Shown in pieces: positions 637 to 55,580 of a stretch of DNA of 64,000 bases (the stretch's first letter is position 1; the number at the start of each line of letters is the position of its first letter). This DNA is from an uncultured Pseudomonadales bacterium. GTDB taxonomy: Bacteria; Patescibacteriota; Microgenomatia; UBA1400; UBA12108. Both the position numbers and the translations under genes were made by a program. The DNA lies in the NCBI GenBank assembly GCA_964347565.1, contig CAYFZD010000001.1, forward strand, positions 3,019-67,018, written 5' to 3'. A model generated the notes under the pieces. The model had not been told where the DNA came from, ran no database searches, and saw only the letters and a program-made list of their open reading frames with translations.

Positions 637-2544
<1,908 letters not shown>

Positions 2545-10515: not shown

Positions 10516-10522
10516 TGACTTT

Positions 10523-12022: not shown

Positions 12023-12025
12023 TAT

Positions 12026-37596: not shown

Positions 37597-38364
37597 ATGT
37601 CACTCTCTCATTACGCCGAACTAGTGCGCGAGCTCTCCATCCGCGAGATCAAGGCCCGTTACAAGCAATCTGTCCTGGGTTATGCCTGGGTCATTTTGAA
37701 TCCATTTTTCCAGATGCTCGTGATGTCTTTTGTCTTCTCCAAAATCCTGCGATTCCCCACCCTCGGCGTACCCTATGCCATCTTTCTCTACGCTGGGCTC
37801 TTGCCCTGGAATTTGTTTGCTAACTCCCTAGTCAGTAGTACCAACGCTCTCGTCAGTAACGCCTCTCTACTCACGAAGATTTACTTCCCGAGGGAAATCT
37901 TCATCATTAGTACGACCCTCGCCAAGATCGTGGACTTTTTCCTCGCTTCCACAGTCTTCATTCTCTTTATGATTTTTTATCAACTCCCTATTACCTGGAA
38001 TATCCTCTGGTTCATCCCGATTTTCGCCATCCAGCAGCTCTTTACCTATGGTCTCTCTCTCATCCTCGCCTCGCTCAATCTTTTCTACCGAGACATCCAG
38101 TATGTGCTGACCCTGATCGTCATGGTCTGGATGTATTTAACTCCCGTTATCTACCCTACCGAGATCTTCCCCGAGCAATATAAGTGGATCTTCCAGCTCA
38201 ATCCCATGGCCGTGATCATCAACGCGTACAGGCAGACCATCCTGGGAGGGGGTATGCCCAATCTCACGAGTCTGGGGATCGGTCTCTTCGTTTCCCTCCT
38301 TGTCACCTTCGTTGGCATCAAACTATTTAAAAAATTAGAAGGGGTCTTTGCGGATGTAGTGTAG
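37597..38364 (+). CDS. wzm: ABC-2 type polysaccharide/teichoic-acid exporter permease (Wzm/TagG-like)
   Basis: LSIREIKARYKQSVLGYAWVILNPFFQML is the canonical ABC-2 N-terminus. 6 TM helices. Confidence 0.8.
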   Translation: MSLSHYAELVRELSIREIKARYKQSVLGYAWVILNPFFQMLVMSFVFSKILRFPTLGVPYAIFLYAGLLPWNLFANSLVSSTNALVSNASLLTKIYFPREIFIISTTLAKIVDFFLASTVFILFMIFYQLPITWNILWFIPIFAIQQLFTYGLSLILASLNLFYRDIQYVLTLIVMVWMYLTPVIYPTEIFPEQYKWIFQLNPMAVIINAYRQTILGGGMPNLTSLGIGLFVSLLVTFVGIKLFKKLEGVFADVV

Positions 38365-38397
38365 TCGCTTTGCGACATGGCTAATGATTAATGACTT

Positions 38398-38784
38398 ATG
38401 ACTAATATCGACAAAAATAAATATCTTAAGTTCGAAGAACTTCCCGTATGGAAGATTAGTTATCAACTAGCCTTGAATATTTACCGTGCTACAATGAATT
38501 TTCCAAAGGCAGAAGTATTTGGATTAACATCACAGATCAGACGATCCTCTTCTTCTGTTGGGGCAAATATTGCTGAAGGATTTTATAAAAATACTACTCC
38601 AGATCTAGTTCACTTCCTGTACATCGCACGAGGATCTGCAGGAGAAACACTACATCACCTTATGATGTCATACGATTTGAAATATATATCTGACGAGGAT
38701 TTTGTTTCTCTCAAAGACCAAGTAGAAAATACGCTTAGACAACTTTCCGCTTGGATAAAATCATTGGAAAATAAGCATCAATAG
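38398..38784 (+). CDS. Four-helix-bundle protein (23S rRNA intervening-sequence protein family)
   Basis: 128 aa. LPVWKISYQLALNIYRATMNFPK...GANIAEGF...YIARGSAGE pattern of the TIGR02436-type family. AT-rich relative to its neighbours. Inserted between wzm and wzt. Confidence 0.65.
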   Translation: MTNIDKNKYLKFEELPVWKISYQLALNIYRATMNFPKAEVFGLTSQIRRSSSSVGANIAEGFYKNTTPDLVHFLYIARGSAGETLHHLMMSYDLKYISDEDFVSLKDQVENTLRQLSAWIKSLENKHQ

Positions 38785-38785
38785 T

Positions 38786-39538
38786 ATGACCATAAATTTA
38801 GCCATCAGCCATCAGTCATCATCCATTAAAATAACTAACGTAAGTAAGTTATTTTTCAAGCAGGAGCAGAAAACGTTCAAAGAATTCTTGCCCGCCATCT
38901 TCACGGGCAAGAAAACAAGGGAGTGGTTCTGGGCACTCCAGGATATCAATCTGGAAATCAGGGCAGGGGAGACGCTCGGGATCATGGGACCCAATGGGAG
39001 CGGCAAGTCCACCCTCCTCAAGCTGATCGCTGGCGTCTCCCAGCCCACCAAAGGGACTATCACCGCGTTGGGTAGGGTAGCCCCCCTCATCGAGCTCGCG
39101 GCCGGGTTCCACCCCGAGCTCACCGGGCGCGAGAACGTTTATCTCAATGGCATCATCTTGGGTATGTCGCGCGCAGAGGTTGCGGACAAATTTAAGACCA
39201 TCGTCGATTTTGCCGAGCTTTGGGACTTTATCGACTCGCCGGTCAAGCACTACTCCTCTGGTATGTACCTGCGCCTCGCCTTTTCCGTGGCCATCCATAC
39301 TGACCCAGATATTCTCTTACTCGACGAGATCTTGGCGGTAGGGGATGAGCAGTTCCAGGCCAAATGCTTTGCCAAACTACGATCTCTCCAAAAACAAGGG
39401 AAAACCATCATCTACGTCTCACATGACAGCCAATCGGTCCGTGATTTTTGCACTAGGGCTATTCTGATTACCAAATCTAGGATAATCAAGGACGCCACCC
39501 CAAAAGTTATTTGTGATCTCTACTCTGCGCAGTCATAA
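38786..39538 (+). CDS. wzt: ABC exporter ATP-binding protein (Wzt/TagH-like, short form)
   Basis: Walker A GPNGSGKSTLLK, signature YSSGMYLRLAF and Walker B ILLLDEILAVGD. No C-terminal carbohydrate-binding extension. Confidence 0.85.
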   Translation: MTINLAISHQSSSIKITNVSKLFFKQEQKTFKEFLPAIFTGKKTREWFWALQDINLEIRAGETLGIMGPNGSGKSTLLKLIAGVSQPTKGTITALGRVAPLIELAAGFHPELTGRENVYLNGIILGMSRAEVADKFKTIVDFAELWDFIDSPVKHYSSGMYLRLAFSVAIHTDPDILLLDEILAVGDEQFQAKCFAKLRSLQKQGKTIIYVSHDSQSVRDFCTRAILITKSRIIKDATPKVICDLYSAQS

Positions 39539-40541
39539 GTTTTTCGATTGTTTTAAATATATACATCACTTTCTTGCTAGAGTCCGCGGTATATGCGAGC
39601 AAGTCTCCTCTGATCTGAACGTAATGAGCTTTCATGTATTCCAGCTTATCGTCAAAAGTAGCCAGTTTACGCAAATCTATCGACAACTGCTCGTATCCTA
39701 TGTCTGTACAATAATTTACGTTTTTTGGCTCGTAGGAGAGCGATAGAAAAGGGATCCCCATTTGAGTTGCGAATATGAGTGAATGGAGCCTCATGCCTAC
39801 CAAGTACCTGCTGGCTTTTAGCGCATCTAAGTTTGATTTAGTCGGCACACGACTAAAGTACTTCTTTAGTTCGTCTTGATCTGTTTTACCAAAAGAGCCG
39901 CTATAGAGGACTAGTGGGTAAACTTTATCAAACTTTTCTTTGACCAAACTAGCTAATTTATCCGGGTTCCACTTTGGTAAAGGGTAAAAATACTTAATCC
40001 ACGGCCTCTTCTCATACCAGCGTCCTAGTCTTTCATGCCACAGACTGTGTAATTCCAAGTCCCACCAAAACCAATCTCTCAGATTTAGTGTACAGCTATC
40101 GGTTGTTACCTCAGCACTCTTCTGATAAGGGTACATAAATGTAATATCAGGTCCAACTATAACTTTAAAGTGATCACCAAGCATCAGACTACTCTTACGG
40201 TCTCTGACATAAATAAATTCGGCCTTATTTTTTAGTACCTCCAATCCCTCCTTCATATCATCATTCAGCCCATCAGCCTCTATACTTATCCCAATACAGC
40301 CAAAGGGTTTAGTAATCTTGTTTAAAAAATCGACATACCTGCTAAAGCCCCGAAATATCAACCCGCCCCCCCCAATCAATACAAAATCACAAGAATTCAC
40401 TCTCCTTATCTCTAATATAGCCTGTAAAAACGACTTAAAGCGAATTATTTTGTGCTTGTGGAAATATTTCTTAATACAGTAATACATCCTTTCATCACCA
40501 AGATTATTGTTGCCCGACCATCCAATCAGTGCAATTTTCAT
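39507..40541 (-). CDS. Polysaccharide pyruvyl transferase (CsaB/WcaK family)
   Basis: N-terminus MKIALIGWSGNNNLGDERMYY and overall PS_pyruv_trans-like architecture. AT-rich. Confidence 0.65.
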   Translation of the reverse strand: MKIALIGWSGNNNLGDERMYYCIKKYFHKHKIIRFKSFLQAILEIRRVNSCDFVLIGGGGLIFRGFSRYVDFLNKITKPFGCIGISIEADGLNDDMKEGLEVLKNKAEFIYVRDRKSSLMLGDHFKVIVGPDITFMYPYQKSAEVTTDSCTLNLRDWFWWDLELHSLWHERLGRWYEKRPWIKYFYPLPKWNPDKLASLVKEKFDKVYPLVLYSGSFGKTDQDELKKYFSRVPTKSNLDALKASRYLVGMRLHSLIFATQMGIPFLSLSYEPKNVNYCTDIGYEQLSIDLRKLATFDDKLEYMKAHYVQIRGDLLAYTADSSKKVMYIFKTIEKLMTAQSRDHK

Positions 40542-41131
40542 ACAGAATTCTCTCCAAGCACAAAATACATTTTGTACGGCAGCCCCAATCTCTCTGCATT
40601 AATCTCACCCAAACTTACCTTCTCAAAATCATTATTCATCAGAGATGGAATGTCTTTTACCGAGTATTCGACTGCATCATCAACTCCAGGGATCTTTTTT
40701 TTATTGGATCCTTTAATTTTTTCTTTGCTATCGGTATCAGGATAGAACAGGAGAACTCTAGGGGAGATCTTAGCCAGTTTTTGCACCAACTTTGTCCGAG
40801 TAGATCCACTCACGCACTGGATCAATCCGCTATTCCACAAAAACTCAAATTTTTCTTCTATTTTAAATAGATCTCCATAGATGGTCTGACAGAGCACACC
40901 GTGGCGCTTGTATATATCTACGCTTGTCTTCAAACTGTCATCGCGGATATCGTTTAGAGTTACCTGATGCCCATCCATAGCCAAAAAATAGGAGATATGT
41001 CCCGTTCCGCTCCCCACCTCGATTATGTTAGGGTCATCACTCAGATTATCTCTAATTACGTGATATATTGCTTCACTGGCTCTCGTCCACAAGATGGGAT
41101 TGCGCATTTTGTTGTAGTAGAACATAATCAC
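40538..41131 (-). CDS. Class I SAM-dependent methyltransferase
   Basis: Motif I IIEVGSGTGHISYFLAMDGHQVTLNDI. ATGA overlap with the pyruvyl transferase gene. Confidence 0.7.
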   Translation of the reverse strand: MIMFYYNKMRNPILWTRASEAIYHVIRDNLSDDPNIIEVGSGTGHISYFLAMDGHQVTLNDIRDDSLKTSVDIYKRHGVLCQTIYGDLFKIEEKFEFLWNSGLIQCVSGSTRTKLVQKLAKISPRVLLFYPDTDSKEKIKGSNKKKIPGVDDAVEYSVKDIPSLMNNDFEKVSLGEINAERLGLPYKMYFVLGENSV

Positions 41132-41136
41132 ATTAT

Positions 41137-41775
41137 ATGATAGATTGGTTCAATTTACTTAAGCATCGCTCCTACCGCAAAGTTCAGGAAGTTAACCTAC
41201 TTTACCCCAATGAAGACTATATCTCTTCAGAACAAAATCTTAACAAAGCCGACCTTCATCGCTTTTCTTATATTTTCAAGTTGCACAAGCACTTAAAGGG
41301 GAGCATGCTCGATATCGGCTGTAATGACGGATATTTTATGCGGCATTTCCCCTGGAAATTTCACAAGTATACCGGCGTTGATTTATTTAGCATTACCAGA
41401 TACACAAAAGGAAGATACTGGCGGGAGCGGAAATACTATACCAAAAACTATCAAATTCGCTATAAACAGGGATATTTTGAGGATATTTCGGCTTCACTGG
41501 GACAATTCGACTTCATTTTCGCCGGAGAAATTATTGAACACGTCGAGGATCCGGAATTATTTTTAAAATCTGTAAAAAACAATTTGAAATCGGGTGCCAC
41601 TTGGTGTATCTCAACTCCGAATGCGATTGGGGGAGACCTACCCGAGCACAATCGTCAATTTAGCAAAAAATCACTCAACAAGCTACTGTCTAAGTATTTT
41701 ACGAAGTTCAAAATTTACGAAATCATATCTCCAGGAGATAGTTGGCCATTTTTAGTTGCGACTGGAAAGGGATAA
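41137..41775 (+). CDS. Class I SAM-dependent methyltransferase
   Basis: Motif I MLDIGCNDGYFM and post-I FIFAGEIIEHV. Confidence 0.7.
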   Translation: MIDWFNLLKHRSYRKVQEVNLLYPNEDYISSEQNLNKADLHRFSYIFKLHKHLKGSMLDIGCNDGYFMRHFPWKFHKYTGVDLFSITRYTKGRYWRERKYYTKNYQIRYKQGYFEDISASLGQFDFIFAGEIIEHVEDPELFLKSVKNNLKSGATWCISTPNAIGGDLPEHNRQFSKKSLNKLLSKYFTKFKIYEIISPGDSWPFLVATGKG

Positions 41776-41785
41776 CTTAATCAAT

Positions 41786-42508
41786 CTACGAATATTTTCG
41801 CTTAATCGCAAAAATCGCCGAAAATGACCTAAGTAATTCCATCAAATTGGCATTCGACTTGCCTTTCTCCCTATCTACAAATTTGAACGGAACTTCTACA
41901 AATCTAAAGCCATGCCGATAAAGTAGATAGAGAGTTTCGGATAATGCGATAAAGCCTTTTTGCTGGATGCGGCTGTGTACGATCAGTTTGACTGCCTCCC
42001 TTGGGTAACAGCGATAGCCATTAGTACAGTCACTAACCGGCACGTGTAAAATAGTACGGATATATGTGTTGGCAAATCTGCTCATGACCTTTCTTCTTAT
42101 TGACCAGTTCATAATTTTGCCGCCCCTGGTGTAGCGAGACGCCACCACAACAGTATTTGGTTCTCTTTTGTCCAAAATCCTAGGCATGTCCGTAGGCTTA
42201 TGGGAAAAATCGGCATCCATCTCAATAAAATACTCTATTTTTGGATTTTTGAGAGCCTCTTCAAATCCCGAGAGGACCGCCCCTCCTCGACCAGATTTTG
42301 ACCTTCTTACAATTAGAGAAACGCGACCATCTTTGTTGGATATGTACTTGCGCACTATCTCCGCGGTACCATCAGGTGAGTTGTCGTCCACAACATAGAT
42401 GTATGCACCCTCCACATTACTGCGTATTTGCTCGATCAAGTCCAGGATATTCTCCTTTTCGTTGTAGGTAGGGATTATTACCCCGATTGGTTCAAGTAAC
42501 TTCTTCAT
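41786..42508 (-). CDS. GT2 glycosyltransferase (dolichyl/polyprenyl-phosphate mannose synthase-like)
   Basis: GVIIPTYNEKENI, YVVDDNSPDGT and EMDADFSH motifs. Confidence 0.8.
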   Translation of the reverse strand: MKKLLEPIGVIIPTYNEKENILDLIEQIRSNVEGAYIYVVDDNSPDGTAEIVRKYISNKDGRVSLIVRRSKSGRGGAVLSGFEEALKNPKIEYFIEMDADFSHKPTDMPRILDKREPNTVVVASRYTRGGKIMNWSIRRKVMSRFANTYIRTILHVPVSDCTNGYRCYPREAVKLIVHSRIQQKGFIALSETLYLLYRHGFRFVEVPFKFVDREKGKSNANLMELLRSFSAIFAIKRKYS

Positions 42509-42518
42509 ACGTTTCTCG

Positions 42519-43703
42519 CTAAATTATAATTGGGGTAGGAAGCGGGATAATAAAATGACCCCCACTAGCCAAGTATTTTTTTTCTCGCTCAATAAAATTT
42601 TCTGCAAAAAACCACGGAAGGATCAGCATGTAATCAGGCTTCAATTTTCTGGCCTCTTCTTCAGATATGATTGGCATGCCCACACATTCCATATTCTTCC
42701 CGTATTTGTCCGGGTTTCGCTCTACGGCATAGGGGATTTGGTGGTGGTCTAGTCCACAGGTTTGCAACAAGGTACCTCCGCGAGTAGATGCTCCGTAGGC
42801 AAAAATAGTCTTCCCCTTGGATTTAAGATCGGCAACTATCTGTGTGATTGATCGCTTAACTTTATCTACTCTGCTGGCAAAACTAAATACGTTGATATTA
42901 GTTTCTTTTTTTATCATAGCTCCAACGCTATTGTCTACTTTCCGCTCACCGATACGGCAGATATAAGTTCGAATAGATCCGCCATTTAATTCGTTCTCTT
43001 CCACTTTAAAAGTCATCAGTCCATGTCGATTTAAGAGCATCTGGAGAGAAGTTAGGGAGTAATACTCCAAGTGCTCATGACAAATATTATCAAAGGCGCA
43101 GTTTTCAATCATCGACATCAGATAGTTTTGCTGAATGATAAATATCCCATTATCATTAAGGCAATCCTTAACATCATCGAGAAACTTACCCGGATCATCG
43201 AGATCATAGAACATCGAAATACAAGTAATCACTTGGAATTGAGAATCCAACGCTTCCTTATTGAAAAAGTCATAAACTATCTTATGTCTGTAACCCTTGA
43301 GCGTTTGTTTGGCGTATTTGGCAACATTTTTCGACGGGTCAATCCCCATTCGCATTAAGTCTTTTGTATACCCGCTCAGCAAGGTTCCGTCATTACAGGC
43401 GATATCCAAGACAGAGTCGCCATCTTGTACGTATTGCTCGGCCTGCTTGGCAATATCGTGCAAGTGTCGGACCATCGCGTCATTCACGCCAGACCTATAA
43501 CCATATCCATCATTCCAAAGTAGATCGGGATTTGTAGTATGTCTAAGTTGTACTAGGGTACACGCAGGGCACCTGACGAGTTCCAATGGGATTGCGACCG
43601 GATCATTACGAAAATCAACAATTTTTTGAGTTCCCAGCGAGAGTACCTCTTCCAGCTCGTCAAAGCCACACGAACGGCAGTTAGTAATGGTTTTATAGTT
43701 CAT
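42519..43703 (-). CDS. Zn-ribbon-containing SAM methyltransferase of the NDP-hexose C-methyltransferase (TylCIII-like) architecture
   Basis: N-terminal C-x2-C...C-x2-C (CRSCGFDELEEVLSLG...CPACTLVQL), central motif I VLDIACNDGT, and a C-terminal domain of about 150 aa. Size 394 aa fits the family. Confidence 0.55.
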   Translation of the reverse strand: MNYKTITNCRSCGFDELEEVLSLGTQKIVDFRNDPVAIPLELVRCPACTLVQLRHTTNPDLLWNDGYGYRSGVNDAMVRHLHDIAKQAEQYVQDGDSVLDIACNDGTLLSGYTKDLMRMGIDPSKNVAKYAKQTLKGYRHKIVYDFFNKEALDSQFQVITCISMFYDLDDPGKFLDDVKDCLNDNGIFIIQQNYLMSMIENCAFDNICHEHLEYYSLTSLQMLLNRHGLMTFKVEENELNGGSIRTYICRIGERKVDNSVGAMIKKETNINVFSFASRVDKVKRSITQIVADLKSKGKTIFAYGASTRGGTLLQTCGLDHHQIPYAVERNPDKYGKNMECVGMPIISEEEARKLKPDYMLILPWFFAENFIEREKKYLASGGHFIIPLPTPIII

Positions 43704-43730
43704 ATCCTAGTTAGTATAGAGAACAACCCC

Positions 43731-44705
43731 TTAATTTACTACCAATCGCAGTAGCTCACAATAGTACTTAGTTCCCCATGAGTTGATTTCTGTGTGAATG
43801 CTGGCGTCCGGTTTGCCACTAGACGTTGCATATTGATATAGCCCCCCGGCGGAGCTATTCCCTTGAACTCTTGCTGCCCATCCCAAAATTTGTTTTGCTT
43901 GATTTTTATACCCCACTTTCCAAAGCAATATTCCCATTTGAACAGATCCAGAAACGTAGGCAAATGTGGCTTTTGGGTAATAAGCAATATATCCATTAGG
44001 CTTTAGTCTCGGCAAAACATGTTTCTGGATAATTTTCTTTACTCGATCAATCTGCCCTAAAGCAACTAAGCCTTCAAGATAGTACGCTAGGGGGTGAGTA
44101 TAGTGGTAGTCGGCTTTGTTCATCTTTAAATTGACTAGACGCGAGGCTGTGTTGTAGTATTTTCTTTCTTTAGTCAGCTCGTACAAACTTATCAACCCCT
44201 CCGCATTTTTAACTTGAATATATGAGAAAGTACTCCCCCAATTAGATCCATCAGATGACTTTTGGTAGACAATTTTAGTATCGCGTTTCGTGTCGTAGAT
44301 CGGGAACATCAATCCGGAATCAATCTGCATCGATAACAAAAAATCTCCTGCGTGCCTAGCCGATATCAAGCAATCCTTCCGGCCGGTAGCTCTGTAAGCG
44401 TCAGTTAAACCAGTTATTATTTGTCCCGTATCAAAACTATACAACTTGTCCTTGTCATAAAAACTTGAATAACCGCCGCTTGGATGTTGTATCGATAAAA
44501 GCTTGTCTATTGCTTGTCCTACCACACTCTCATGTGACATTTGGTATCGGCAAAAGTATGATACCAGATAGCCGGTTACCTCCGGATACGGCTTAACCCA
44601 TCGGATTGACTTGTGAGACTCCAGGCTATGAGCCAAACCATAACGTATACAACTTTTCAAAAAATCCTCAGCCTGGCTCAACGAAGTACTACGATCTAAT
44701 TTCAT
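43731..44705 (-). CDS. Hypothetical protein, possible alpha/alpha-toroid repeat fold
   Basis: Repeated Gly/aromatic blocks (HPSGGYSSFY, SDGSNWGSTFSY, GNSSAGGLYQYA) are reminiscent of prenyltransferase/terpene-cyclase or (alpha/alpha)6-barrel repeats. No catalytic motif recognised. Confidence 0.35.
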   Translation of the reverse strand: MKLDRSTSLSQAEDFLKSCIRYGLAHSLESHKSIRWVKPYPEVTGYLVSYFCRYQMSHESVVGQAIDKLLSIQHPSGGYSSFYDKDKLYSFDTGQIITGLTDAYRATGRKDCLISARHAGDFLLSMQIDSGLMFPIYDTKRDTKIVYQKSSDGSNWGSTFSYIQVKNAEGLISLYELTKERKYYNTASRLVNLKMNKADYHYTHPLAYYLEGLVALGQIDRVKKIIQKHVLPRLKPNGYIAYYPKATFAYVSGSVQMGILLWKVGYKNQAKQILGWAARVQGNSSAGGLYQYATSSGKPDASIHTEINSWGTKYYCELLRLVVN

Positions 44706-45699
44706 AAATGTCTTTCAAAATATTTTCCCATCGTTTCTCCCAGGTGTGTTCTTTTAGTACTCTGCGGTAACTATTCTCTGCGATCCACTCTTGGTACTGT
44801 GGGTGTAGAAGGCAATATTGTACTGTGCGGATCAAGTCTTCCTCGCTGTGGTACCCCACAACGTCTACTCCATAAGTAAACAACGGGGCCATCTCAGTGT
44901 TAAATGAAGTCACAATACACGTACGACACGCCGCGGCCTCAAACAGTCCAACTTTTACATTATTGTATCCTGCGTAGGTTTGTGAGAATGACAAATATAT
45001 TCTCCCTGAATTAATTGCCCTCGTGTGATCCAGTCCATGGACTTCGTTACTAGATTGATCCCATCCCGAGCCGTATGTTTTAACGCTAAAGTACTCACGG
45101 AGTGCACTAACTATCTCAATCCTCTCCGGCCTAGCATGTCCCACTACCACCACGTCATATTGTTTTGATACTTTTCGTAACGGTTTATGTAGAGACGGAG
45201 AGGCTGCAAACGGCAGATGTCTATACTTGGAACTTTGCGGGTACTGTCTCTTTAGGGAGTGAAGAGAATTGGTATAAAACAAATCAAAATTATCGCCGTA
45301 AATCTGGCCGTTATCTGCAAATACGTCCGGGTCCGACAGTTCTATCCCCACGCATACTACTCTGCGGTTACTCAGCCACTCCTTGGTCTGCTCGGTTATC
45401 GCCATTCCCCCCGCATTGAGTACAACATAGTTTGGTTTGAGTTTGCCAACTAGTTTCACCAGTTTATTGTGATTTATCCACCGAATAGGGTAGGTGTGCC
45501 CTGGTCTAAGCTCCTCGCTATACCAATTCCCTGTGCTATTATCATAGATTTTTGTATCTACCAGCTCAGTGTGTCCTTTGTTCTTTAACTCCTGAGCCAT
45601 CAAATACACGACATCATTCTCTCCCATCCAGTAACTGCCAAGATGTACACCTGTTAAATTCATAAGTATTATCGTAAAATACATTATAGTATGAAACAA
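44689..45699 (-). CDS. CgeB-like glycosyltransferase (Glyco_trans_1_2 type)
   Basis: C-terminal GLFEAAACRTCIVTSF...YHSEEDL...YRRVLKEHTWEKRWENIL is typical of the CgeB/DUF3880 family. Confidence 0.55.
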   Translation of the reverse strand: MFHTIMYFTIILMNLTGVHLGSYWMGENDVVYLMAQELKNKGHTELVDTKIYDNSTGNWYSEELRPGHTYPIRWINHNKLVKLVGKLKPNYVVLNAGGMAITEQTKEWLSNRRVVCVGIELSDPDVFADNGQIYGDNFDLFYTNSLHSLKRQYPQSSKYRHLPFAASPSLHKPLRKVSKQYDVVVVGHARPERIEIVSALREYFSVKTYGSGWDQSSNEVHGLDHTRAINSGRIYLSFSQTYAGYNNVKVGLFEAAACRTCIVTSFNTEMAPLFTYGVDVVGYHSEEDLIRTVQYCLLHPQYQEWIAENSYRRVLKEHTWEKRWENILKDIYEIRS

Positions 45700-47964
45700 G
45701 CCAAAACCTCACCTATTATCCTTGGCTTCGCTTTTACCGACTCCTTGTCATTTAGATTGTGGCAAATCCTCTGCAAGTTCAAACAAATCACGGCCTACGA
45801 CGAATACAGACATATTACCGCCCTAACCAAAAGATATACGCGCGGCACCGACAATTGGATAAAGAAAGTCATCCTCCCGTCCAAGGCTTTTAAGCGTTGG
45901 CTCACTTACTACTCTCTTAAAATTCGCCTAAAAGATAAAATTTTCTTGACCGGAAAAAAATATTTACCCACTGTACTCAAAGTTTTTCTCAAAAAACACG
46001 CTCCTGCCTACTTCCCAGTGCCCATGAAACCGATTCCTCCAAGCATTCAGCACAAGTGGAACGAATGGGTTAACACCCGCTCAAATGCCAGTCTCGACAT
46101 TATCAACTTTGGGGTGATCGCCTACAATTACCGCATCCAGCGTCCACAGCACCTAGCCACAGAAATGACCAAATTGGGCCATCGGGTTTTCTACATCGAA
46201 AATGAGTTTGTCTATACTTCAAGTCACAAATTACCACAACTCACGGTGACCCAGCAAAGTGACAACCTTTTTGTAGTTAAATTATCGTCATCGATTAATT
46301 ACTTTATCTACCGGGATTCAATATCGGAAAAAGATAAAAAAATTCTCCTCTCGTCATTTAAAGTCTTGTTAAGGAAAGCTCGCATTCTCAATCCGGTAGC
46401 CAAGATCGACCACCCGTTCTGGGGATCTCTTGTCAATGATTTAAGCATGCCGGTTATTTACGACGCTATGGACCTTCACGCCGGTTTTAAAGAGACCTCG
46501 GCTTATAATCTGGAAAAAGAACAAACTCTCCTAAAACAATCCGACATTATTCTCTCCAGTTCCGACTACCTTACCAAACAATTTCACAAATTTAAATCTA
46601 AGACCTTATCACTCAAAAACGCCGGCGAGTATTCACACTTCGCGCATAATCAAATACTTAGGAATTCTCCACCTCCGGACTTTGCAGGCCTCAAACACCC
46701 CATCATCGGTTACTACGGAGCCATTGCCGATTGGTTTAACCCGGATCTAATAGAGGGAGTTGCCAAATCAATCCCCGAAGCCAGCATTGTGCTCATTGGT
46801 CACGTTAGCAACGAGAGGCTTTTGACACTGGCCAGTCGATATCCAAACATTCATTTATTAGGAGAGAAGTCATACTCCGACCTTCCCCGCTACCTAGCCA
46901 GCTTCGATGTCTGTCTCATTCCCTTCAAATTGACCAAACTCATCCAGGCTACAAACCCTGTCAAGATCTATGAATATTTTGCCTCTGGCAAACCGGTAGT
47001 GGCCACGTCTATACCGGAACTCATGCCCTACAAGAAAATTATTTACATGGCTGATACCGTCAGCACATATGTTTCTGCTGTCAAACGCGCAATCAAAGAA
47101 AACTCGGCTTTAAAACAAAAGTTACGCATTGCCGTAGCCAAAGCCAATACCTGGGTCCATCGAGCTAAGGTGCTCGAAGATCACCTTTTGCGCACCTTCT
47201 ACCCTAAAGTGAGTGTTATTATTCTAGTTTATAACCACAGTGATTTATCCAAAATCTCCATAGATACCACGCTAGATCGCTCAAAATATCCTAACTTTGA
47301 AGTTTTGGCTGTAGATAACTGCTCCGATCAAGAAACCAGGAAAATGCTTGAGCAGTATCGCGGTCGTAAAAATATCCGGCTAATTTTTAACTCAAAAAAT
47401 TATGGATTTGCCAAAGGTAATAATATTGGGATGGAGCGTGCGCGAGGTGATTATCTTCTCCTACTCAACAACGACGTTCGCGTAACTCCCGGCTGGATTG
47501 AGAGGCTTGTTTTCCATGCCAAATCAAACAATGTAGGGTTAGTTGGACCCGTTACCAATAGTATCGGCAACGAATCAAAGATCAAAATTCGCTACGACTC
47601 TGAAAATCAGAGCGAGATGGAAATGCAGTCCGCAGATTATGTATATGCTCACTGGGGAGAAACTCTAAAACTTCGTAATATCGCAGCCTTTGCTTGGATA
47701 AAGTCTAGGATGGTCTATAACAAAATTGGCGGGCTAGACGATCGTTTTGGCAGAGGACTATTCGAAGACGATGATTACTGTGTGCGCGTAGGTAATGCTA
47801 AATTGGATATTTTGTGTGCCGAAGATGCTTTTGTTCACCACTACGGTGGGGCTAGCACTAACTGGGGTAGTCCGGAATTCAAATTATTATTTAACACCAA
47901 CAAAACCAAATTTGAGACTAAATGGAAAATGAAATGGACTCCACATAAATACCGCAAAGAATAA
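45691..47964 (+). CDS. Multidomain glycosyltransferase: N-terminal unknown domain + GT4-like domain + C-terminal GT2 domain
   Basis: Middle region HPIIGYYGAIADWFN...IYEYFASGKPVVAT (GT4 C-terminal domain). C-terminal region KVSVIILVYNHSDL...LAVDNCSDQ...FEDDDYC (GT2). The start overlaps the divergent cgeB-like start by 9 bp, so the true start is uncertain. Confidence 0.65.
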   Translation: MKQAKTSPIILGFAFTDSLSFRLWQILCKFKQITAYDEYRHITALTKRYTRGTDNWIKKVILPSKAFKRWLTYYSLKIRLKDKIFLTGKKYLPTVLKVFLKKHAPAYFPVPMKPIPPSIQHKWNEWVNTRSNASLDIINFGVIAYNYRIQRPQHLATEMTKLGHRVFYIENEFVYTSSHKLPQLTVTQQSDNLFVVKLSSSINYFIYRDSISEKDKKILLSSFKVLLRKARILNPVAKIDHPFWGSLVNDLSMPVIYDAMDLHAGFKETSAYNLEKEQTLLKQSDIILSSSDYLTKQFHKFKSKTLSLKNAGEYSHFAHNQILRNSPPPDFAGLKHPIIGYYGAIADWFNPDLIEGVAKSIPEASIVLIGHVSNERLLTLASRYPNIHLLGEKSYSDLPRYLASFDVCLIPFKLTKLIQATNPVKIYEYFASGKPVVATSIPELMPYKKIIYMADTVSTYVSAVKRAIKENSALKQKLRIAVAKANTWVHRAKVLEDHLLRTFYPKVSVIILVYNHSDLSKISIDTTLDRSKYPNFEVLAVDNCSDQETRKMLEQYRGRKNIRLIFNSKNYGFAKGNNIGMERARGDYLLLLNNDVRVTPGWIERLVFHAKSNNVGLVGPVTNSIGNESKIKIRYDSENQSEMEMQSADYVYAHWGETLKLRNIAAFAWIKSRMVYNKIGGLDDRFGRGLFEDDDYCVRVGNAKLDILCAEDAFVHHYGGASTNWGSPEFKLLFNTNKTKFETKWKMKWTPHKYRKE

Positions 47965-47965
47965 T

Positions 47966-49033
47966 ATGAAAATAGCACTTATCCTAGGAACCAGACCGGA
48001 AATTATCAAATTCTCGCCGATCATCCGCGAACTACAGAATCGCCAACTGGAATTTTTTATTCTTCATTCTAATCAGCATTACTCTCCCGGTATGGATCAA
48101 CAGTTTTTTGCCGAACTATCCCTCCCGCAACCAAGGTATAACCTAGATGTTCACAATCTTCCCCAAGGTGCGATGGTAGGGCAAATGCTTCTCGGGATTG
48201 AACCAATCCTGATCGATGAAAAGCCAGATTGGGTTTTAGTAGAAGGGGACACTAACACCGTTTTAGCGGGTGCTCTTGCCGCTGCTAAACTAGGTATAAA
48301 GGTTGGGCATGTTGAGGCAGGTTTGCGCAGTTATGATCGTACAATGCCAGAAGAGCTCAATCGGATTGTTGCGGACCATCTCTCTGATGTTCTCTTCTGT
48401 CCCACGCATAACTCCGTCAAAATAGCGCTAGGGGAGGGAATACCCAAAGAAAAAGTCATCTTGACAGGCAACACCATAGTGGACGCCGTGGAGCAAAACC
48501 TTACCCTCGCTAAACAGTCCAAACTAGACGACAAGTACAAAAATCAAAACTATCTGCTCCTCACGATGCATCGCCCCTCCAATGTCGACACAAAGGCTGC
48601 CCTCTCCCAAGCCATTGCCTCCCTAGAGAGCCTCTCAGACGAGCTAAATGTCCCCATTATCTTCCCTGTGCACCCCCGCACAGATAACGCCCTCAAGCGA
48701 TTCCAATTAACTCCCAACCCAGCCAAAGTCAAGATCATTGACCCTGTTGGATATCTAGAAATGTTGCTACTCATGGAAAGTGCTCAGCTGATCATTACCG
48801 ACTCTGGCGGGATCCAAGAAGAGGCCTGTATCCTTCGTGTGCCCTGCATCACCATTCGTGACAATACAGAACGACCCGAAACGGTCGCAGTTGGTGCCAA
48901 CCTCATCGTGGGTACCTCCATTGTAGAAGTCATTACCGGAGCCAAAACCATGCTCGCAAAAACCCGTGACTGGCCCAACCCCTTTGGAGACGGTCATAGT
49001 GCAACAAGAATCGTTAATCAAATAATAGATTGA
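47966..49033 (+). CDS. wecB: UDP-N-acetylglucosamine 2-epimerase (non-hydrolysing)
   Basis: MKIALILGTRPEIIKFSPII, HVEAGLRSYDR and ITDSGGIQEEA blocks. Confidence 0.9.
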   Translation: MKIALILGTRPEIIKFSPIIRELQNRQLEFFILHSNQHYSPGMDQQFFAELSLPQPRYNLDVHNLPQGAMVGQMLLGIEPILIDEKPDWVLVEGDTNTVLAGALAAAKLGIKVGHVEAGLRSYDRTMPEELNRIVADHLSDVLFCPTHNSVKIALGEGIPKEKVILTGNTIVDAVEQNLTLAKQSKLDDKYKNQNYLLLTMHRPSNVDTKAALSQAIASLESLSDELNVPIIFPVHPRTDNALKRFQLTPNPAKVKIIDPVGYLEMLLLMESAQLIITDSGGIQEEACILRVPCITIRDNTERPETVAVGANLIVGTSIVEVITGAKTMLAKTRDWPNPFGDGHSATRIVNQIID

Positions 49034-52285: not shown

Positions 52286-53808
52286 AGTGCTGTTTTCCTT
52301 TTAATAACCGCCCATTCATCGACAACTATTATATTGTCAAAGTCAAAACCACCTCGCTTCATCCGCTCAATAATACAAAGATCAAGATCAGGATCTTGCT
52401 GACTATAATTAATCGAATGAAAACGCCGATCAATAGTCTCCTTATCATTATATCTCAAAACAACTGTACTGACGCTATCGATCCCCATGGGATAATAGTA
52501 CATTTTGTGATCGTGTAAATTGTACGAAATTGCCTCAGGCACACTCAAAGTTGCCTCATCACCCACTGCCTCACGCAAACGCCTGCGGAAATCGAGCGAT
52601 AACGCTGATTTTTGATACTGATAGCGAACACCTTGTATTAGTTTTTTTGCCGCAATAGTTGGTCTCTCATTTATCTTTAAAGTCGCTGGGTTTATCCACA
52701 TCGTAAACATAATCGCTAAACCAATTAGCGCGGCCTGAATTCTAGGTCTATTATTCAACTTACTTAGTCCGATCAGACTAATCCAAATTAAAGGGACAAA
52801 GTATCCAATATGATAATGTGTTGACCATCCAATTTTCTCAGCACCTCCTACCGTAACAAGCACATTTGGCCCAAGCAAAAGCATCATTGGAAAGATGAGT
52901 CGAACATTGATCAGTGCAAATACCCCCATAGCCAAAAAATTAACTATCAGGAATATTTGTGTCCCCGGTTCTGCCAACCGCAACCAGACACTCCTTAAAA
53001 GACTACCCAAGCCATGTCCAAAAAGACTACCCAGCGAACTAGTTTGTGTTGAACCAAGAGGGAAATGTCTCTGAATATAAGCAGTTGAAATTGCCCCAAA
53101 TCCAAGCAAAGCAATCGCTAAGATAGATATCCTTCGATCAAATTTTTTATAAATCCACATATAACTACATAACATAATAAAAATTGTAATCCCATATATT
53201 TCATTCGTGCTAGCTGCCAATATACTAGCTAAAAACACAAGGGCATAATTAATTTTTGACTTATCTAGCAGCAGGATCAAGATGGCACTAAAAGGCAAGA
53301 AAAATCGATTAAAATATAGCTGACCTGTCAATCCTTGATCCCACAGCGGGTGCTGCATAACCAAAAGTACAAAAAAGGCAGACAAAGCAATGCTAAATTT
53401 CTTTTGACGAGCCAATATATAGGCAAAGACGAGAATAGAAGTATAAATACCAGCGTGGAGTACGGCAATCATTAGGGGAATATCCATCATCCGAGCGAGC
53501 GGGATCAAGAGGTAGGCAATAAAATAGTGGTGACCCCATGGAGTATCCGTGAATTTTGACTCTAAATCCATCGAACAAACTTCTGCTGCTGGCTTATACC
53601 ACACGTGGTCAATTGATTCTGTAGTAGAGGTGTAGTATGTAGTCTGCATTGTTAGCGTCTGCTTGAAGTTGTGTAGCACCTGCGCTACAAATGCCGTATC
53701 ACCAACCTGATTTTTAATATTCAAGAAAAAGAGGAAATAACTAAGAACGCCCCATAAAAAAAATGCAATCAAGGCAACAACAGTTTTCTCCTGAAAAACT
53801 TTCTTCAT
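52282..53808 (-). CDS. Polytopic membrane protein (508 aa), paralog of 49030-50556; GtrC-position partner of upstream GT2
   Basis: N-terminal loop DTAFVAQVLHNFKQTLTMQT...EVCSMDLESKFTDTPWGHHYFIAYLL. ATGA overlaps on both sides. Confidence 0.55.
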   Translation of the reverse strand: MKKVFQEKTVVALIAFFLWGVLSYFLFFLNIKNQVGDTAFVAQVLHNFKQTLTMQTTYYTSTTESIDHVWYKPAAEVCSMDLESKFTDTPWGHHYFIAYLLIPLARMMDIPLMIAVLHAGIYTSILVFAYILARQKKFSIALSAFFVLLVMQHPLWDQGLTGQLYFNRFFLPFSAILILLLDKSKINYALVFLASILAASTNEIYGITIFIMLCSYMWIYKKFDRRISILAIALLGFGAISTAYIQRHFPLGSTQTSSLGSLFGHGLGSLLRSVWLRLAEPGTQIFLIVNFLAMGVFALINVRLIFPMMLLLGPNVLVTVGGAEKIGWSTHYHIGYFVPLIWISLIGLSKLNNRPRIQAALIGLAIMFTMWINPATLKINERPTIAAKKLIQGVRYQYQKSALSLDFRRRLREAVGDEATLSVPEAISYNLHDHKMYYYPMGIDSVSTVVLRYNDKETIDRRFHSINYSQQDPDLDLCIIERMKRGGFDFDNIIVVDEWAVIKRKTAL

Positions 53809-55537: not shown

Positions 55538-55580
55538 TAAACTCCTTGATTTGGGCAGAGATAAAACGTCCTAAAAGGAT

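Follow-up and report, generated by a model that had tools for sequence, protein, structure and literature searches.

What kind of genetic unit is the compact block of seven genes at 39507–45699 of the window, the 64,000-nucleotide stretch of DNA analysed here? A first-pass annotation had read it as a single acquired module that decorates a glycan. We compared the block with related loci, whose contexts all come from metagenome contigs. All seven annotated open reading frames were recovered with identical coordinates and strands:

39507–40541, minus strand: polysaccharide ketal-pyruvyl transferase, an accessory member of the cassette described below (PF04230, 78.9 bits; cutoff 25.3)
40538–41131, minus strand: small class-I SAM methyltransferase, MT197 (borderline Pfam methyltransferase match, SAM motif)
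41137–41775, plus strand: class-I SAM methyltransferase, MT212 (PF13489, 61 bits)
41786–42508, minus strand: Dpm1/PpgS/ArnC-like GT2 of 240 residues, a putative polyprenyl-phosphate sugar synthase (PF00535, 97.3 bits)
42519–43703, minus strand: three-domain sugar C-methyltransferase (C-MT) of the TylCIII/TcaB9 family (Pfam, PDB alignment and tree)
43731–44705, minus strand: (alpha/alpha)6-barrel protein, hallmark of the conserved cassette (AF2 model and Foldseek)
44689–45699, minus strand: CgeB-like GT-B glycosyltransferase (PF13524, 92.3 bits)

The genes are tightly packed, with intergenic gaps of -4, 5, 10, 10, 27 and -17 nt, and six of the seven run opposite to the long plus-strand string of genes upstream, as had been annotated. 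Independent gene calls on identical metagenome contigs start MT197 at 41125 rather than 41131 and the PF13524 glycosyltransferase at 45663 (ATG) rather than 45699 (TTG); these are the likely starts.

Base composition and synteny

The genes around the block that bear on its interpretation are as follows:

1579–2544, plus strand: Gmd, a GDP-mannose 4,6-dehydratase (TIGR01472, 459 bits; cutoff 415)
37597–38364, plus strand: Wzm-type ABC-2 permease (PF01061, 69.5 bits; NCBIfam Wzm/KpsM-like)
38398–38784, plus strand: 23S-rRNA-IVP/four-helix-bundle gene between wzm and wzt (PF05635, 123.6 bits)
38786–39538, plus strand: Wzt-type ABC ATPase, short form of 250 residues (PF00005, 86 bits; TagH/Wzt-like by NCBIfam)
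45691–47964, plus strand: two-domain GT1+GT2 glycosyltransferase, TuaH/TuaG-like (Pfam and NCBIfam)
47966–49033, plus strand: non-hydrolysing UDP-GlcNAc 2-epimerase of the WecB/MnaA type (TIGR00236, 391 bits; cutoff 210)
53805–54776, minus strand: CDP-glucose 4,6-dehydratase-like protein (TIGR02622, 202 bits; cutoff 278)
54761–55537, minus strand: glucose-1-phosphate cytidylyltransferase (TIGR02623, 276 bits; cutoff 300)
55581–56906, plus strand: RfbH/E1 3-dehydrase (NF011936, 621 bits; cutoff 423)

The block is compositionally distinct from the 4–39 kb region (GC 0.414 versus 0.481, p = 7e-6 by Mann–Whitney; GC3 0.446 versus 0.558), but not from the sequence downstream, where 45.7–64 kb has a GC of 0.430 and a GC3 of 0.441 (p = 0.33 and 0.68). 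GC3 steps down sharply, from 0.657 to 0.432, at the junction between the Wzt and pyruvyl transferase genes, which overlap convergently by 32 nt, and the low-GC domain runs from 39.5 to about 63 kb, a length of at least 24 kb and not 6–8 kb. The AT-richness that the first-pass annotation relied on is therefore real relative to the upstream operon but fails to delimit the block, because low GC extends to about 63 kb. A related locus, L003, carries the same genes, except MT212, between the same neighbours, with identities of 59–85% upstream (85% for Wzm), 55–77% in the block and 58–69% downstream, and this synteny spans the GC step. The GT1+GT2 gene, which is divergent from the block, is syntenic in L003 (60%) and in L093 (64%). 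Because this gene arrangement is shared with L003 at 55–85% identity, the block was not recently acquired as a unit.

These data could also mean that the lineage, before it parted from L003, took up the whole region from about 39.5 to 63 kb (22 genes or more) as a single older island from a donor of lower GC in which the mosaic described below had already been put together. GC, GC1 and GC3 are uniformly lower across it, its edge at the Wzt/pyruvyl transferase junction is sharp, and a weaker GC dip spans the same genes in L003. Polysaccharide loci typically have variable regions of low GC, which we also counted in favour of an island. However, downstream conservation with L003 is uneven, the CDP-sugar genes at 53805–56906 having no L003 match within reach, and two additional low-GC singletons, at 2549–3169 and at 38398–38784 (the IVP gene, with a GC of 0.354 and missing in L003), point to piecemeal insertion; no mobility gene or tRNA-type boundary came to notice. 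We regard an island as possible but doubtful.

The C-methyltransferase and its GT2 partner

The C-MT has the TylCIII-like architecture that had been annotated: a zinc ribbon, a class-I methyltransferase domain and, at the C terminus, PF08484, each above its cutoff (PF08421, 40.2 bits; PF13489, 55.5 bits; PF08484, 143.7 bits). It aligns over its full length with solved sugar 3-C-methyltransferases (4rv9, E = 1e-54; TcaB9, 2e-40; 5t64, 2e-35), and its invariant residues include the zinc cysteines C9, C12, C45 and C48 and the motif H209-E210-H211. In an unrooted neighbour-joining tree built from simple distances, with some phage-clade members of no known context, the window clade was recovered in 200/200 bootstraps and joined, also at 200/200, to a sister clade containing four confirmed SU10-phage copies. 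These phage copies sit within structural modules of SU10-like phages, and L004 and P0014, the outgroups that follow, are likewise phage or phage-type. The tree supports horizontal acquisition of the C-MT gene, probably from the SU10-like phage gene pool, and it is for this gene, not for the block as a single module, that the horizontal origin proposed in the annotation holds. Best matches in a different phylum, which the annotation had envisaged, did not appear: there was no cross-phylum signal, the named matches of the C-MT being Levybacteria/Patescibacteria and those of a housekeeping-type gene on the high-GC side Microgenomates-group CPR. Nor is the C-MT gene novel for the lineage, as had been suggested for a C-methylated and pyruvylated sugar, because CPR genomes commonly carry homologues.

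No Pfam membrane domain was found in the neighbouring GT2, and its best NCBIfam similarities are to polyprenyl-phosphate glycosyltransferases (PpgS, ArnC, AglJ and PgfS), all far below the equivalog cutoffs. Homologues with 38–47% identity abut the C-MT in at least eight Patescibacteria loci (L015, L016, L019, L020, L022, L024, L028 and L035), in two of which (L016 and L022) the genes are convergent and not co-transcribed. The nearest relatives of the GT2 are in Levybacteria. It differs from the GT2 of the phages, with which this locus shares only the C-MT.

Another possibility is that this C-MT subfamily does not methylate nucleotide sugars at carbon but acts on a heteroatom or on a lipid-linked or polymer-bound sugar, possibly as the methyltransferase partner of the barrel protein. 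Two probed active-site positions of TcaB9, H181 and Y222, are D167 and C208 in the window enzyme, and both swaps are invariant across the subfamily. No 4,6-dehydratase or 4-ketoreductase adjoins the C-MT in the window, where Gmd is 40 kb and the CDP genes are 10–13 kb away, and no dehydratase lies within 10 kb of it in L003 or in the Patescibacteria loci that pair C-MT with GT2. The gene also directly follows that of the barrel protein, a slot usually held by a methyltransferase. Yet the enzyme retains the Glu-His dyad, the zinc site and the full three-domain architecture; its closer relatives (44–48% identity; L013, L036, L175 and L178) abut Gmd, as do many distant relatives in cellular and viral loci; no barrel protein was found beside the phage copies; and MT197 is still kept beside the C-MT. 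A change of substrate class is unlikely on this evidence.

A conserved cassette

The PF13524 glycosyltransferase, the barrel protein and MT197, with or without the pyruvyl transferase, form a conserved unit (Unit A). Outside the window clade, the barrel gene has the glycosyltransferase gene no more than 1.5 kb upstream in 17/23 loci and, no more than 1.5 kb downstream and in the same direction, an MT197 homologue in 19/22. Of the 19 such cassette loci that span 6 kb or more, 18 have the glycosyltransferase, 16 the methyltransferase, 11 the 2-epimerase, 5 the pyruvyl transferase, 4 Wzt and none the C-MT; the 2-epimerase also occurs in 23 of 29 more distant barrel-family loci of the same minimum size. 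Single-protein fusions join the same components: PF13524 glycosyltransferase and barrel (P0365); barrel, two methyltransferases and pyruvyl transferase (P0407); GT1, barrel, methyltransferase, FrhB-like domain and pyruvyl transferase (P0429); TagF-like domain, barrel and methyltransferase; and GT2, barrel and methyltransferase. A methyltransferase domain directly follows the barrel at its C terminus in 91 of the 150 best family representatives. MT197 itself has borderline class-I matches (best 26.7 bits; cutoff 27), but it contains a VGSGTG SAM motif and its homologues score as methyltransferases. The best NCBIfam model for the pyruvyl transferase is CsaB (71.8 bits; cutoff 213), and the spacing of R251-x-H253...K273 matches the PEP-binding residues of CsaB. 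Relatives of the cassette come from diverse metagenomes with a GC of 0.27–0.56, and Unit A is a widespread, undescribed cassette that is often found beside Wzm/Wzt, which are directly upstream of it in L011 and L012, and a UDP-GlcNAc 2-epimerase.

The C-MT and GT2 genes (Unit B) are separate from this cassette. They lie inside it only in the window clade (L003 and L093–L095), and in 80/80 reference-genome C-MT loci the genes of Unit A are absent. MT212 (Unit C), which interrupts the minus-strand gene string, is a single-gene insertion; L003 does not have it and has a 28-nt spacer at the corresponding position. Its homologues (47–50% identity) lie near cassettes in L109, L114 and L123, and it resembles the methyltransferase type fused to barrels only in a generic way (22% identity).

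It is thus very unlikely that the seven genes are one horizontally acquired module that makes one C-methylated and pyruvylated sugar. They are contiguous, mostly co-oriented, tightly spaced and AT-richer than the upstream operon, and L003 keeps the set, minus one gene, together. But 0/19 other cassette loci have the C-MT and 0/80 other C-MT loci the pyruvyl transferase, low GC passes beyond the block boundary, and the nearest relatives differ: those of the C-MT are phage-borne, those of the GT2 come from Levybacteria and those of the cassette from diverse metagenomes. The block thus falls into three or more units that are differently distributed, and the doubly modified sugar is unsupported because it merges two modules that do not co-occur outside the window clade.

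The barrel protein

Family-level domain calls from the first pass held for six of the seven genes. The exception is 43731–44705, described there as an orphan repeat protein, for which a word-index search found 126 homologues and the cluster representatives number 2,575, 1,383 and 190 at E ≤ 1e-3, 1e-10 and 1e-30. Its AF2 model (pLDDT 95.8, pTM 0.93) has MmpH (7qsj; TM 0.72, E = 7e-9) as the top Foldseek match, followed by other (alpha/alpha)6 enzymes that equal MmpH by TM. Profile searches against the PDB gave matches only at the level of squalene-hopene-cyclase repeats (E ~1e-6) and no sequence-level match to characterised enzymes, so any role given to the protein is a guess. Invariant residues are Y40, P41, E42, G45, Y46, Q73, G77, D92, H204, Y208, E211, Q256, K313 and Y314. 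A role for Unit A in making or recycling a polymethylated polysaccharide inside the cell, instead of in decorating an exported glycan, is hardly credible: the barrel's best structural match and the unit's gene content do mirror the mycobacterial MMP cluster, which comprises a glycosyltransferase (GT4 ManT), two methyltransferases and the (alpha/alpha)6 hydrolase MmpH (PMC9883506), but the barrel has no sequence-level similarity to MmpH, the window glycosyltransferase is PF13524 and not GT4, the block methyltransferases match no MMP methyltransferase among solved-structure sequences, the loci where the cassette adjoins Wzm/Wzt include L011, L012 and those of the window clade, and cassette genes are fused to TagF-like polymerases.

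A probable mosaic within a cell-surface glycan locus

From the observed gene and domain identities, modular distribution, fusions, synteny and phage affinity, we somewhat favour reading the block as a mosaic of Units A, B and C in a large cell-surface glycan locus of an uncultured bacterium that probably belongs to the Microgenomates group of the CPR/Patescibacteria, with the following proposed roles. Unit A would act at the cytoplasmic face on a polyprenol-linked glycan exported by Wzm/Wzt (37597–39538). The PF13524 glycosyltransferase may add a residue, possibly ManNAc, by way of the adjacent 2-epimerase, which is the predicted supplier of UDP-ManNAc; the barrel protein would bind or process the glycan end; and O-methylation by the methyltransferase and 4,6-pyruvylation by the PEP-dependent pyruvyl transferase would follow, either capping the glycan terminally or decorating each repeat. 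The reaction order, the substrates and the choice between cap and repeat are inferred. Unit B, its C-MT gene drawn from the SU10-like phage pool, may have entered between the barrel gene and its methyltransferase partner in the ancestor of the clade, and Unit C was probably inserted later. The C-MT is predicted to C-methylate an NDP-4-keto-6-deoxyhexose, most likely GDP-4-keto-6-deoxymannose from Gmd or, alternatively, a CDP-4-keto sugar supplied by the RfbF/G/H-like genes; in L166, a cytidylyltransferase, a dehydratase and a C-MT-like gene are consecutive. The GT2 would transfer the completed sugar to polyprenyl phosphate, making it available to one of the numerous GT-C enzymes that the window encodes.

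The GT1+GT2 protein at 45691–47964 is a candidate polymerase for the decorated glycan. Wzt_C, the C-terminal carbohydrate-binding domain, was not found in the window Wzt, whereas the longer Wzt proteins of L011 and L012 (421–423 residues) have sub-threshold matches to it (21.0 and 25.6 bits; cutoff 30.4); for want of a clear cap-binding domain, both results weigh against the proposed roles. The unrelated locus L012 also has an IVP gene at the wzm/wzt position.

Gene content and composition of the block

The seven genes at 39507-45699 had been interpreted in a first-pass annotation as one horizontally acquired decoration module. The coordinates and strands of the seven ORFs were all exact, and six of the seven annotations were confirmed by Pfam and NCBIfam; the remaining product, described as an orphan repeat protein (43731-44705), is a member of a widespread domain and is called the barrel protein below.

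Genes of the block, with domain matches
39507-40541, minus strand: pyruvyl transferase; PF04230, 78.9 bits (cutoff 25.3)
40538-41131, minus strand: MT197, class-I methyltransferase; borderline at 26.7 bits against a cutoff of 27, VGSGTG motif
41137-41775, plus strand: MT212, class-I methyltransferase; clear match, 61 bits
41786-42508, minus strand: GT2 of 240 aa; PF00535, 97.3 bits
42519-43703, minus strand: C-methyltransferase (C-MT); PF08421 40.2, PF13489 55.5 and PF08484 143.7 bits, all above gathering cutoffs
43731-44705, minus strand: barrel protein of 324 aa, with 126 word-index homologues
44689-45699, minus strand: CgeB-like GT; PF13524, 92.3 bits

The C-terminal C-methyltransferase domain required by the call for 42519-43703 is present as the PF08484 match of 143.7 bits. 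Gaps within the block range from -4 to 27 nt. Identical copies of several block proteins are present on metagenome contigs, where independent gene calls start the CgeB-like GT at 45663 and the small methyltransferase at 41125. The source contig is ENA ERZ27247837 k141_119302 (134 kb), in which the window begins at about 3.25 kb.

We then compared base composition gene by gene. The block (GC 0.414, GC3 0.446) is AT-richer than the 31 genes at 4-39 kb (GC 0.481, GC3 0.558; Mann-Whitney p=7e-6), with GC1 also reduced, and GC3 drops abruptly from 0.657 to 0.432 at the convergent Wzt/pyruvyl-transferase junction. However, its composition is indistinguishable from that of 15 downstream genes (GC 0.430, GC3 0.441; p=0.33 and 0.68), and the AT-rich domain covers at least 24 kb, from 39.5 to about 63 kb. 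The AT-richness reported for the block is therefore real relative to the upstream genes but is not specific to it, and composition does not delimit the block. Two lone low-GC genes upstream, at 2549-3169 (GC 0.356) and 38398-38784 (GC 0.354), indicate piecemeal insertions. The first is a 206-aa ORF (GC3 0.314) with no Pfam or NCBIfam match, located between Gmd and an SDR epimerase/reductase of an otherwise high-GC GDP-sugar operon.

At the left end of the block, the 3' ends of the Wzt and pyruvyl transferase genes overlap convergently by 32 nt (39507-39538); at the right end (45663-45699), the divergent starts of the CgeB-like GT and a 757-aa GT1-GT2 protein lie at most 27 nt apart, or overlap by 9 nt if a TTG start is used. 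These overlaps leave hardly any space for promoters. A promoter and terminator scan gave numbers at shuffle expectation (19 sites versus 18.8, and 4 versus 5.5).

The block is a long-resident mosaic

A syntenic relative, L003 (GCA_034680565.1), has the same arrangement as the window: GT-C/GT2/PTPS-related/GT4 - Wzm - Wzt, then pyruvyl transferase - MT - GT2 - C-MT - barrel - CgeB-like GT, followed by a GT1-GT2 fusion - 2-epimerase - DUF2079. Protein identity between the two is 59-85% upstream of the GC step, 55-77% in the block and 58-69% downstream, and a compositional dip, weaker than that of the window, covers the same genes in L003. Three further contigs, L093-L095, belong to the same clade. 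The block is thus old in this lineage, and we read it as a long-resident mosaic, against the earlier reading as a single imported module. What stands of the earlier account is most of the observation itself, the C-MT call and, for one gene, a horizontal origin, which here is phage-related.

Two window genes, MT212 (41137-41775) and the IVP gene (38398-38784), are missing from L003 and are therefore insertions specific to the window lineage. MT212 is a precise single-gene insertion at the position of a 28-nt spacer in L003; its stop is 10 nt from the convergent GT2 stop, and its start is only 5-11 nt from the divergent start of MT197, so that transcription of MT197 and the pyruvyl transferase gene must begin inside MT212 or read it antisense. 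The IVP gene (PF05635, four-helix bundle) sits exactly between wzm and wzt, and an IVP gene occupies the same position at 4649-4975 of the unrelated contig L012. The wzm|wzt junction is a recurrent insertion site for this gene.

A check for best hits of the block in a different phylum had also been proposed. The best named relatives of the window's UDP-glucose dehydrogenase (UGDH) are from Microgenomates-group CPR bacteria (76% identity to an ACD_40 bin, 66% to Woesebacteria and 65% to Microgenomates GW2011), and those of C-MT are Levybacteria/Patescibacteria (approximately 49%). The two compositional domains hence give no sign of coming from different phyla. The window plus 10-kb flanks contained neither ribosomal genes nor other markers, so the host taxonomy rests on one UGDH search.

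A recurrent cassette centred on a barrel protein and a methyltransferase

To define the genomic setting of the barrel protein, we compared the neighbourhoods of 80 metagenomic relatives, together with the contigs L011 and L012, with the window proteins by tblastn, counting close relatives at ≥35% identity and leaving out the window clade. A homologue of the small methyltransferase (40538-41131) follows the barrel gene co-directionally within 1.5 kb in 19 of the 22 loci with enough flank, and a PF13524 GT lies within 1.5 kb upstream in 17/23. Loci spanning 6 kb or more numbered 19, of which 18 had the GT, 16 the methyltransferase, 11 a UDP-GlcNAc 2-epimerase, 5 a pyruvyl transferase, 4 Wzt and none C-MT. 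Distant barrel relatives (20-35% identity) retain a single association, that with the 2-epimerase (23/29). The cassette-bearing contigs range in GC from 0.27 to 0.56.

Protein fusions show the same partners. A methyltransferase domain is directly C-terminal to the barrel in 91 of the 150 best representatives, and larger combinations occur.

Fusion proteins containing the barrel domain
P0365: PF13524 GT + barrel
P0407 (1127 aa): barrel + MT + MT + PF04230
P0429 (1851 aa): TPR + GT1 + barrel + MT + FrhB-like + PF04230
P0378 and P0387: TagF-like + barrel + MT
P0381 (1015 aa): GT2 + FkbM/RfbT-like MT + barrel + MT

The neighbourhoods and fusions together argue that the GT, barrel protein, methyltransferase and pyruvyl transferase of the block are a functionally linked set that is independent of C-MT. 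The cassette core is the barrel protein plus methyltransferase, with the pyruvyl transferase as an accessory. Because this set exists without C-MT (0/19 cassette loci), the proposal that C-methyl and pyruvyl groups are placed on one sugar is not indicated. The giant barrel proteins (P0429, P0407, P0381 and P0380, the last of 1004 aa), among which a faint RIO-kinase-like region and Fe-S/FrhB-like domains also occur, look like all-in-one glycan polymerase/terminator enzymes. MT212 was considered as the counterpart of the barrel-fused methyltransferase and rejected, having only 22% generic similarity to it.

We next examined the barrel protein itself. An AlphaFold2 model built from a 76-sequence alignment (pLDDT 95.8, pTM 0.93) matched (alpha/alpha)6 barrels in a Foldseek search of the PDB, the top match being MmpH (7qsj; E=7e-9, TM 0.72-0.73), with further matches to small squalene-hopene-cyclase-like proteins, unsaturated glucuronyl hydrolase, cellobiose/AGE-type 2-epimerases (TM up to 0.76) and GH76. 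The sequence profile instead found squalene-hopene cyclase at the level of its repeats (E ~1e-6) among PDB sequences, then cellobiose 2-epimerase, PL10 and GH76; with 76 sequences, it missed MmpH even at E<=10. Polar or aromatic residues predominate among the invariant positions (Y40, P41, E42, G45, Y46, Q73, G77, D92, H204, Y208, E211, Q256, K313 and Y314), and most of them lie at or a few residues from helix starts in the model. They would be more in keeping with a pocket for sugar binding or catalysis than with one for isoprenoids.

MmpH is a methylmannose polysaccharide hydrolase with catalytic Asp47 and Glu262. The methylmannose polysaccharide (MMP) cluster to which it belongs is similar in combining a GT, methyltransferases and an (alpha/alpha)6 barrel enzyme of similar size (PMC9883506), but its GT and methyltransferase families are different, and MMP is a cytoplasmic polymer whereas the locus studied here is linked to an exporter. 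Membership in this cluster was rejected at the sequence level, since the barrel profile misses MmpH and neither MT197 nor MT212 matched an MMP methyltransferase (MeT1/MeT3 type) among PDB sequences. We found no Pfam family above threshold and no characterised homologue for the barrel plus methyltransferase module. The barrel family is large, an exhaustive profile search returning 2,575, 1,383 and 190 cluster representatives at E<=1e-3, 1e-10 and 1e-30, respectively.

On a further contig, L166 (Ga0187871_10000101, 8001-13200), a barrel member (27%) is followed by genes for glucose-1-P cytidylyltransferase (44%), a CDP-glucose 4,6-dehydratase-like protein (38%) and a C-MT-like protein (28%). In this contig the barrel is associated, independently, with a pathway for C-methylation of a CDP-sugar.

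The C-methyltransferase and its GT2 partner

Full-length alignments of C-MT were obtained with 4rv9, whose deposited name is 'D-mycarose 3-C-methyltransferase' (E=1e-54, query residues 4-394), with TcaB9 (2e-40) and with 5t64 (2e-35). Like TylCIII, EryBIII, TcaB9, KijD1 and MtmC (PDB 3ndi, 5t64 and 4rv9), it has three domains, Zn-ribbon cysteines and a Glu-His dyad. C9, C12, C45 and C48, which align with Cys pairs of 4rv9 and TcaB9, are invariant among 36 subfamily members, as are H209-E210-H211. To compare active sites, we took the positions probed in the PDB mutant series of TcaB9 (H181, Y222, E224 and the adjacent His). The Glu and next His (E210, H211) and a Tyr pair (Y67, Y69) are conserved in C-MT, whereas H181 is replaced by an invariant D167 and Y222 by C208 throughout the subfamily. 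C-MT is only about 30-35% identical to the solved NDP-hexose C-3 methyltransferases, and its subfamily appears to be a divergent branch of the family with its core dyad intact. Unlike TylCIII-type enzymes, C-MT has no dehydratase or ketoreductase gene beside it, has a Dpm1-like GT2 as its partner and falls in a clade nested among phage genes.

The C-MT family has more than 7,000 matches at E<=1e-10, in almost every phylum. A reference-genome search with the alignment (a single-protein query gave no matches) reached only 48% identity at best, and none of 80 C-MT loci in reference genomes contained genes of the barrel cassette. CBU_0691 of Coxiella, proposed to act in virenose synthesis, belongs to the same family (PMC3539893). 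Consistent with that proposal, the genomic links of C-MT relatives point to GDP-mannose 4,6-dehydratase and cell-surface glycans, not to antibiotics: Gmd homologues (41-67% identity) adjoin C-MT in many loci, cellular as well as viral, among them the close relatives L013, L036, L175 and L178. This linkage does not extend to L003 or to the CPR loci with C-MT and GT2, where no dehydratase adjoins. The dehydratase genes of the window lie at a distance from C-MT.

Sugar-nucleotide and export genes of the window
1579-2544: Gmd, a genuine GDP-mannose 4,6-dehydratase; 459 bits, cutoff 415
37597-39538, plus strand: Wzm/Wzt exporter
47966-49033: WecB-type UDP-GlcNAc 2-epimerase; TIGR00236, 391 bits, cutoff 210
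53.8-56.9 kb, CDP-hexose set: glucose-1-P cytidylyltransferase (276 bits, cutoff 300), CDP-glucose 4,6-dehydratase-like protein (202 bits, cutoff 278) and RfbH/E1 (621 bits, cutoff 423)

A homologue of the 240-aa GT2 (38-47%) directly abuts C-MT in at least eight Patescibacteria loci; the two genes are convergent in L016 and L022, and GT-C genes surround the GT2. The top five NCBIfam matches of GT2 are PpgS, ArnC, AglJ, PgfS and Dol-P hexose transferase, and none reaches its equivalog cutoff (best 68.1 bits versus 370). GtrA/GtrB/GtrC, ArnC/ArnT and PpgS systems likewise have a small GT2 with polyprenyl-phosphate matches, and the window is rich in GT2, GT4 and GT-C genes (PMT_2, GT87 and PIG-V-like) and has one GT2-GtrA fusion. 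It differs in having no dedicated GT-C or flippase beside GT2 and in matches far below the cutoffs. Most likely, C-MT would convert GDP-4-keto-6-deoxymannose to a 3-C-methyl sugar, in line with the virenose proposal (PMC3539893), a CDP-4-keto sugar being the alternative substrate, and GT2 may transfer the product to polyprenyl phosphate for use by a GT-C enzyme. The main weakness of this model is the missing adjacent dehydratase or ketoreductase. With this gene pair the locus offers a defined candidate for a branched (C-methyl) deoxyhexose and its delivery by way of a polyprenyl-phosphate carrier.

A probable phage source of C-MT

The nearest relatives of C-MT outside the window clade are encoded on SU10-like phage contigs (P0009, P0010, P0011 and P0013/L173 at 65-68% identity; P0012/L004 at 59%) that carry SU10 portal, major capsid and adaptor genes. 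In these phages the virion structural module contains, between its genes for major capsid and adaptor, a conserved glycosylation string that includes the C-MT gene, with the order capsid - 135 aa - 612 aa - GT1 - CmcI-like MT - (HNH) - (hexapeptide transferase) - MT - ~280 aa - GT2 - C-MT - ~238 aa ... adaptor.

Phage glycosylation strings
L229: 4253-10898
L231: 5457-10904
L234: 1987-7899
L173: 1253-7898
L004: 257-4211

In total, 56 IMG/VR contigs carry members of the C-MT family. In an unrooted neighbour-joining tree (64 sequences, 401 columns, 200 bootstraps), the window clade and the clade joining it to the phage sequences were each recovered in 200/200 replicates; the next outgroups were L004 (155/200) and then P0014 plus P0015 (197/200), P0014 having the phage-type micro-synteny of the SU10-like contigs. 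C-MT is the only gene that the phages and the window share. Both the phage GT2 and the phage 238-aa protein were rejected as orthologues of the window GT2, as neither gave a significant match. The sequence relationships are most economically explained by a capture of C-MT from the phage pool in the ancestor of the window clade, with C-MT set, along with a GT2 of CPR type, between the gene for the barrel protein and that for its methyltransferase partner. As the tree is simple and unrooted, this direction of transfer is probable and unproven.

The position of C-MT inside the virion structural module suggests that these phages of CPR bacteria glycosylate their own particles with a branched sugar or use it to modify host glycans. 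As a lead, the locus offers direct evidence that genes pass between SU10-like phages associated with CPR bacteria and the glycan loci of hosts, a matter of interest for phage-receptor arms races and for the glycosylation of virions. A contig of the Patescibacteria MAG SMAG_U2785 (L039, DASWFI010000149.1) contains the whole phage module, with a capsid gene at 59% identity; it is a prophage or a co-binned phage and links SU10-like phages to CPR hosts.

Sugar supply and a model for finishing exported glycans

The pyruvyl transferase has CsaB (TIGR03609) as its best curated model, at 71.8 bits against a cutoff of 213.1 and thus below equivalog level. In P. alvei CsaB, PEP is bound by R148, R306, H308 and K328, and CsaB acts with the MnaA 2-epimerase to give the pyruvylated ManNAc found in secondary cell-wall polymers of Gram-positives (PMC6030368, PMC10435577). 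SLH-domain proteins have this pyruvylated glycan as their anchor. By motif inspection without alignment, the window enzyme has R251-x-H253...K273, with a His-to-Lys spacing of 20 identical to that of the CsaB PEP site, and R113 or R115 is a candidate for CsaB R148. The locus resembles the CsaB/MnaA system in its PF04230 domain, in the nearby UDP-GlcNAc 2-epimerase, through which it has a UDP-ManNAc supply (MnaA/WecB, 47966-49033; TIGR00236, 391 bits), and in a predicted action on a lipid-linked glycan. On the other hand, the N-terminal acceptor site has a W8/G10 region, by inspection, where CsaB has Y14/F16, and the enzyme is embedded among a GT, a barrel protein and methyltransferases.

We propose that the cassette most likely acts on a polyprenol-linked glycan ahead of export by Wzm/Wzt. 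The PF13524 GT may add a residue, for which ManNAc is a candidate because of the 2-epimerase association and the CsaB-like pyruvyl transferase. The barrel protein would then bind or process the glycan end, which the methyltransferase and pyruvyl transferase could subsequently modify.

Such steps may serve to cap the glycan, as WbdD-type chain terminators do for ABC-transporter-dependent O-antigens of E. coli O8/O9a (PMC3482155); terminal methylation by RfbT in V. cholerae O1 is a related case. As with WbdD, methyltransferases are encoded beside Wzm/Wzt, and barrel-family members occur as fusions with polymerase-type GT, TagF, TPR and RfbT/FkbM-like domains, a pattern expected of enzymes that work where a glycan is being extended. 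Unlike the WbdD system, the window locus has no kinase or coiled-coil ruler, and the (alpha/alpha)6 barrel lacks a WbdD counterpart. The WbdD and RfbT precedents and the fusions to polymerase-type domains make terminal capping of an exported glycan an attractive possibility. Decoration of each repeat is equally possible, as the window Wzt (250 aa) consists of the ABC domain alone, with no cap-binding C-terminal domain, and the Wzt proteins of L011 and L012 match Wzt_C only below threshold (21.0 and 25.6 bits; cutoff 30.4).

We tentatively suggest, while considering it rather doubtful in this full form, that the barrel protein and its neighbouring or fused methyltransferase are a widespread, undescribed module that recognizes the ends of polyprenol-linked surface glycans and finishes them by methylation and sometimes pyruvylation, often coupled to a polymerase or ABC exporter. 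It would be a new chain-terminating or capping machinery that, in this CPR clade, was invaded by a phage-derived C-MT. A recurrent module of this kind could explain capping or decoration of many ABC-exported glycans. The single enzymes are of known kinds; what makes the locus valuable is its modular architecture and its connection to phages, rather than a C-methyl-plus-pyruvyl sugar. The new part, the cassette (barrel plus methyltransferase, optionally with pyruvyl transferase and GT) and the probable entry into it of a C-MT from phages, is worth a modest follow-up.

CPR/Patescibacteria episymbionts rely on surface contacts with their hosts, and to our knowledge nothing is known of the chemistry of their surface glycans. 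Glycan biosynthesis fills the entire 64-kb window, which also encodes UDP-glucose dehydrogenase and several SDR epimerase/reductases. If the host is truly a small CPR genome, this is a very large investment in glycan synthesis. Glycan-synthesis genes continue for at least 4 kb past the window, where a TagF-like gene is found in the contig L008.
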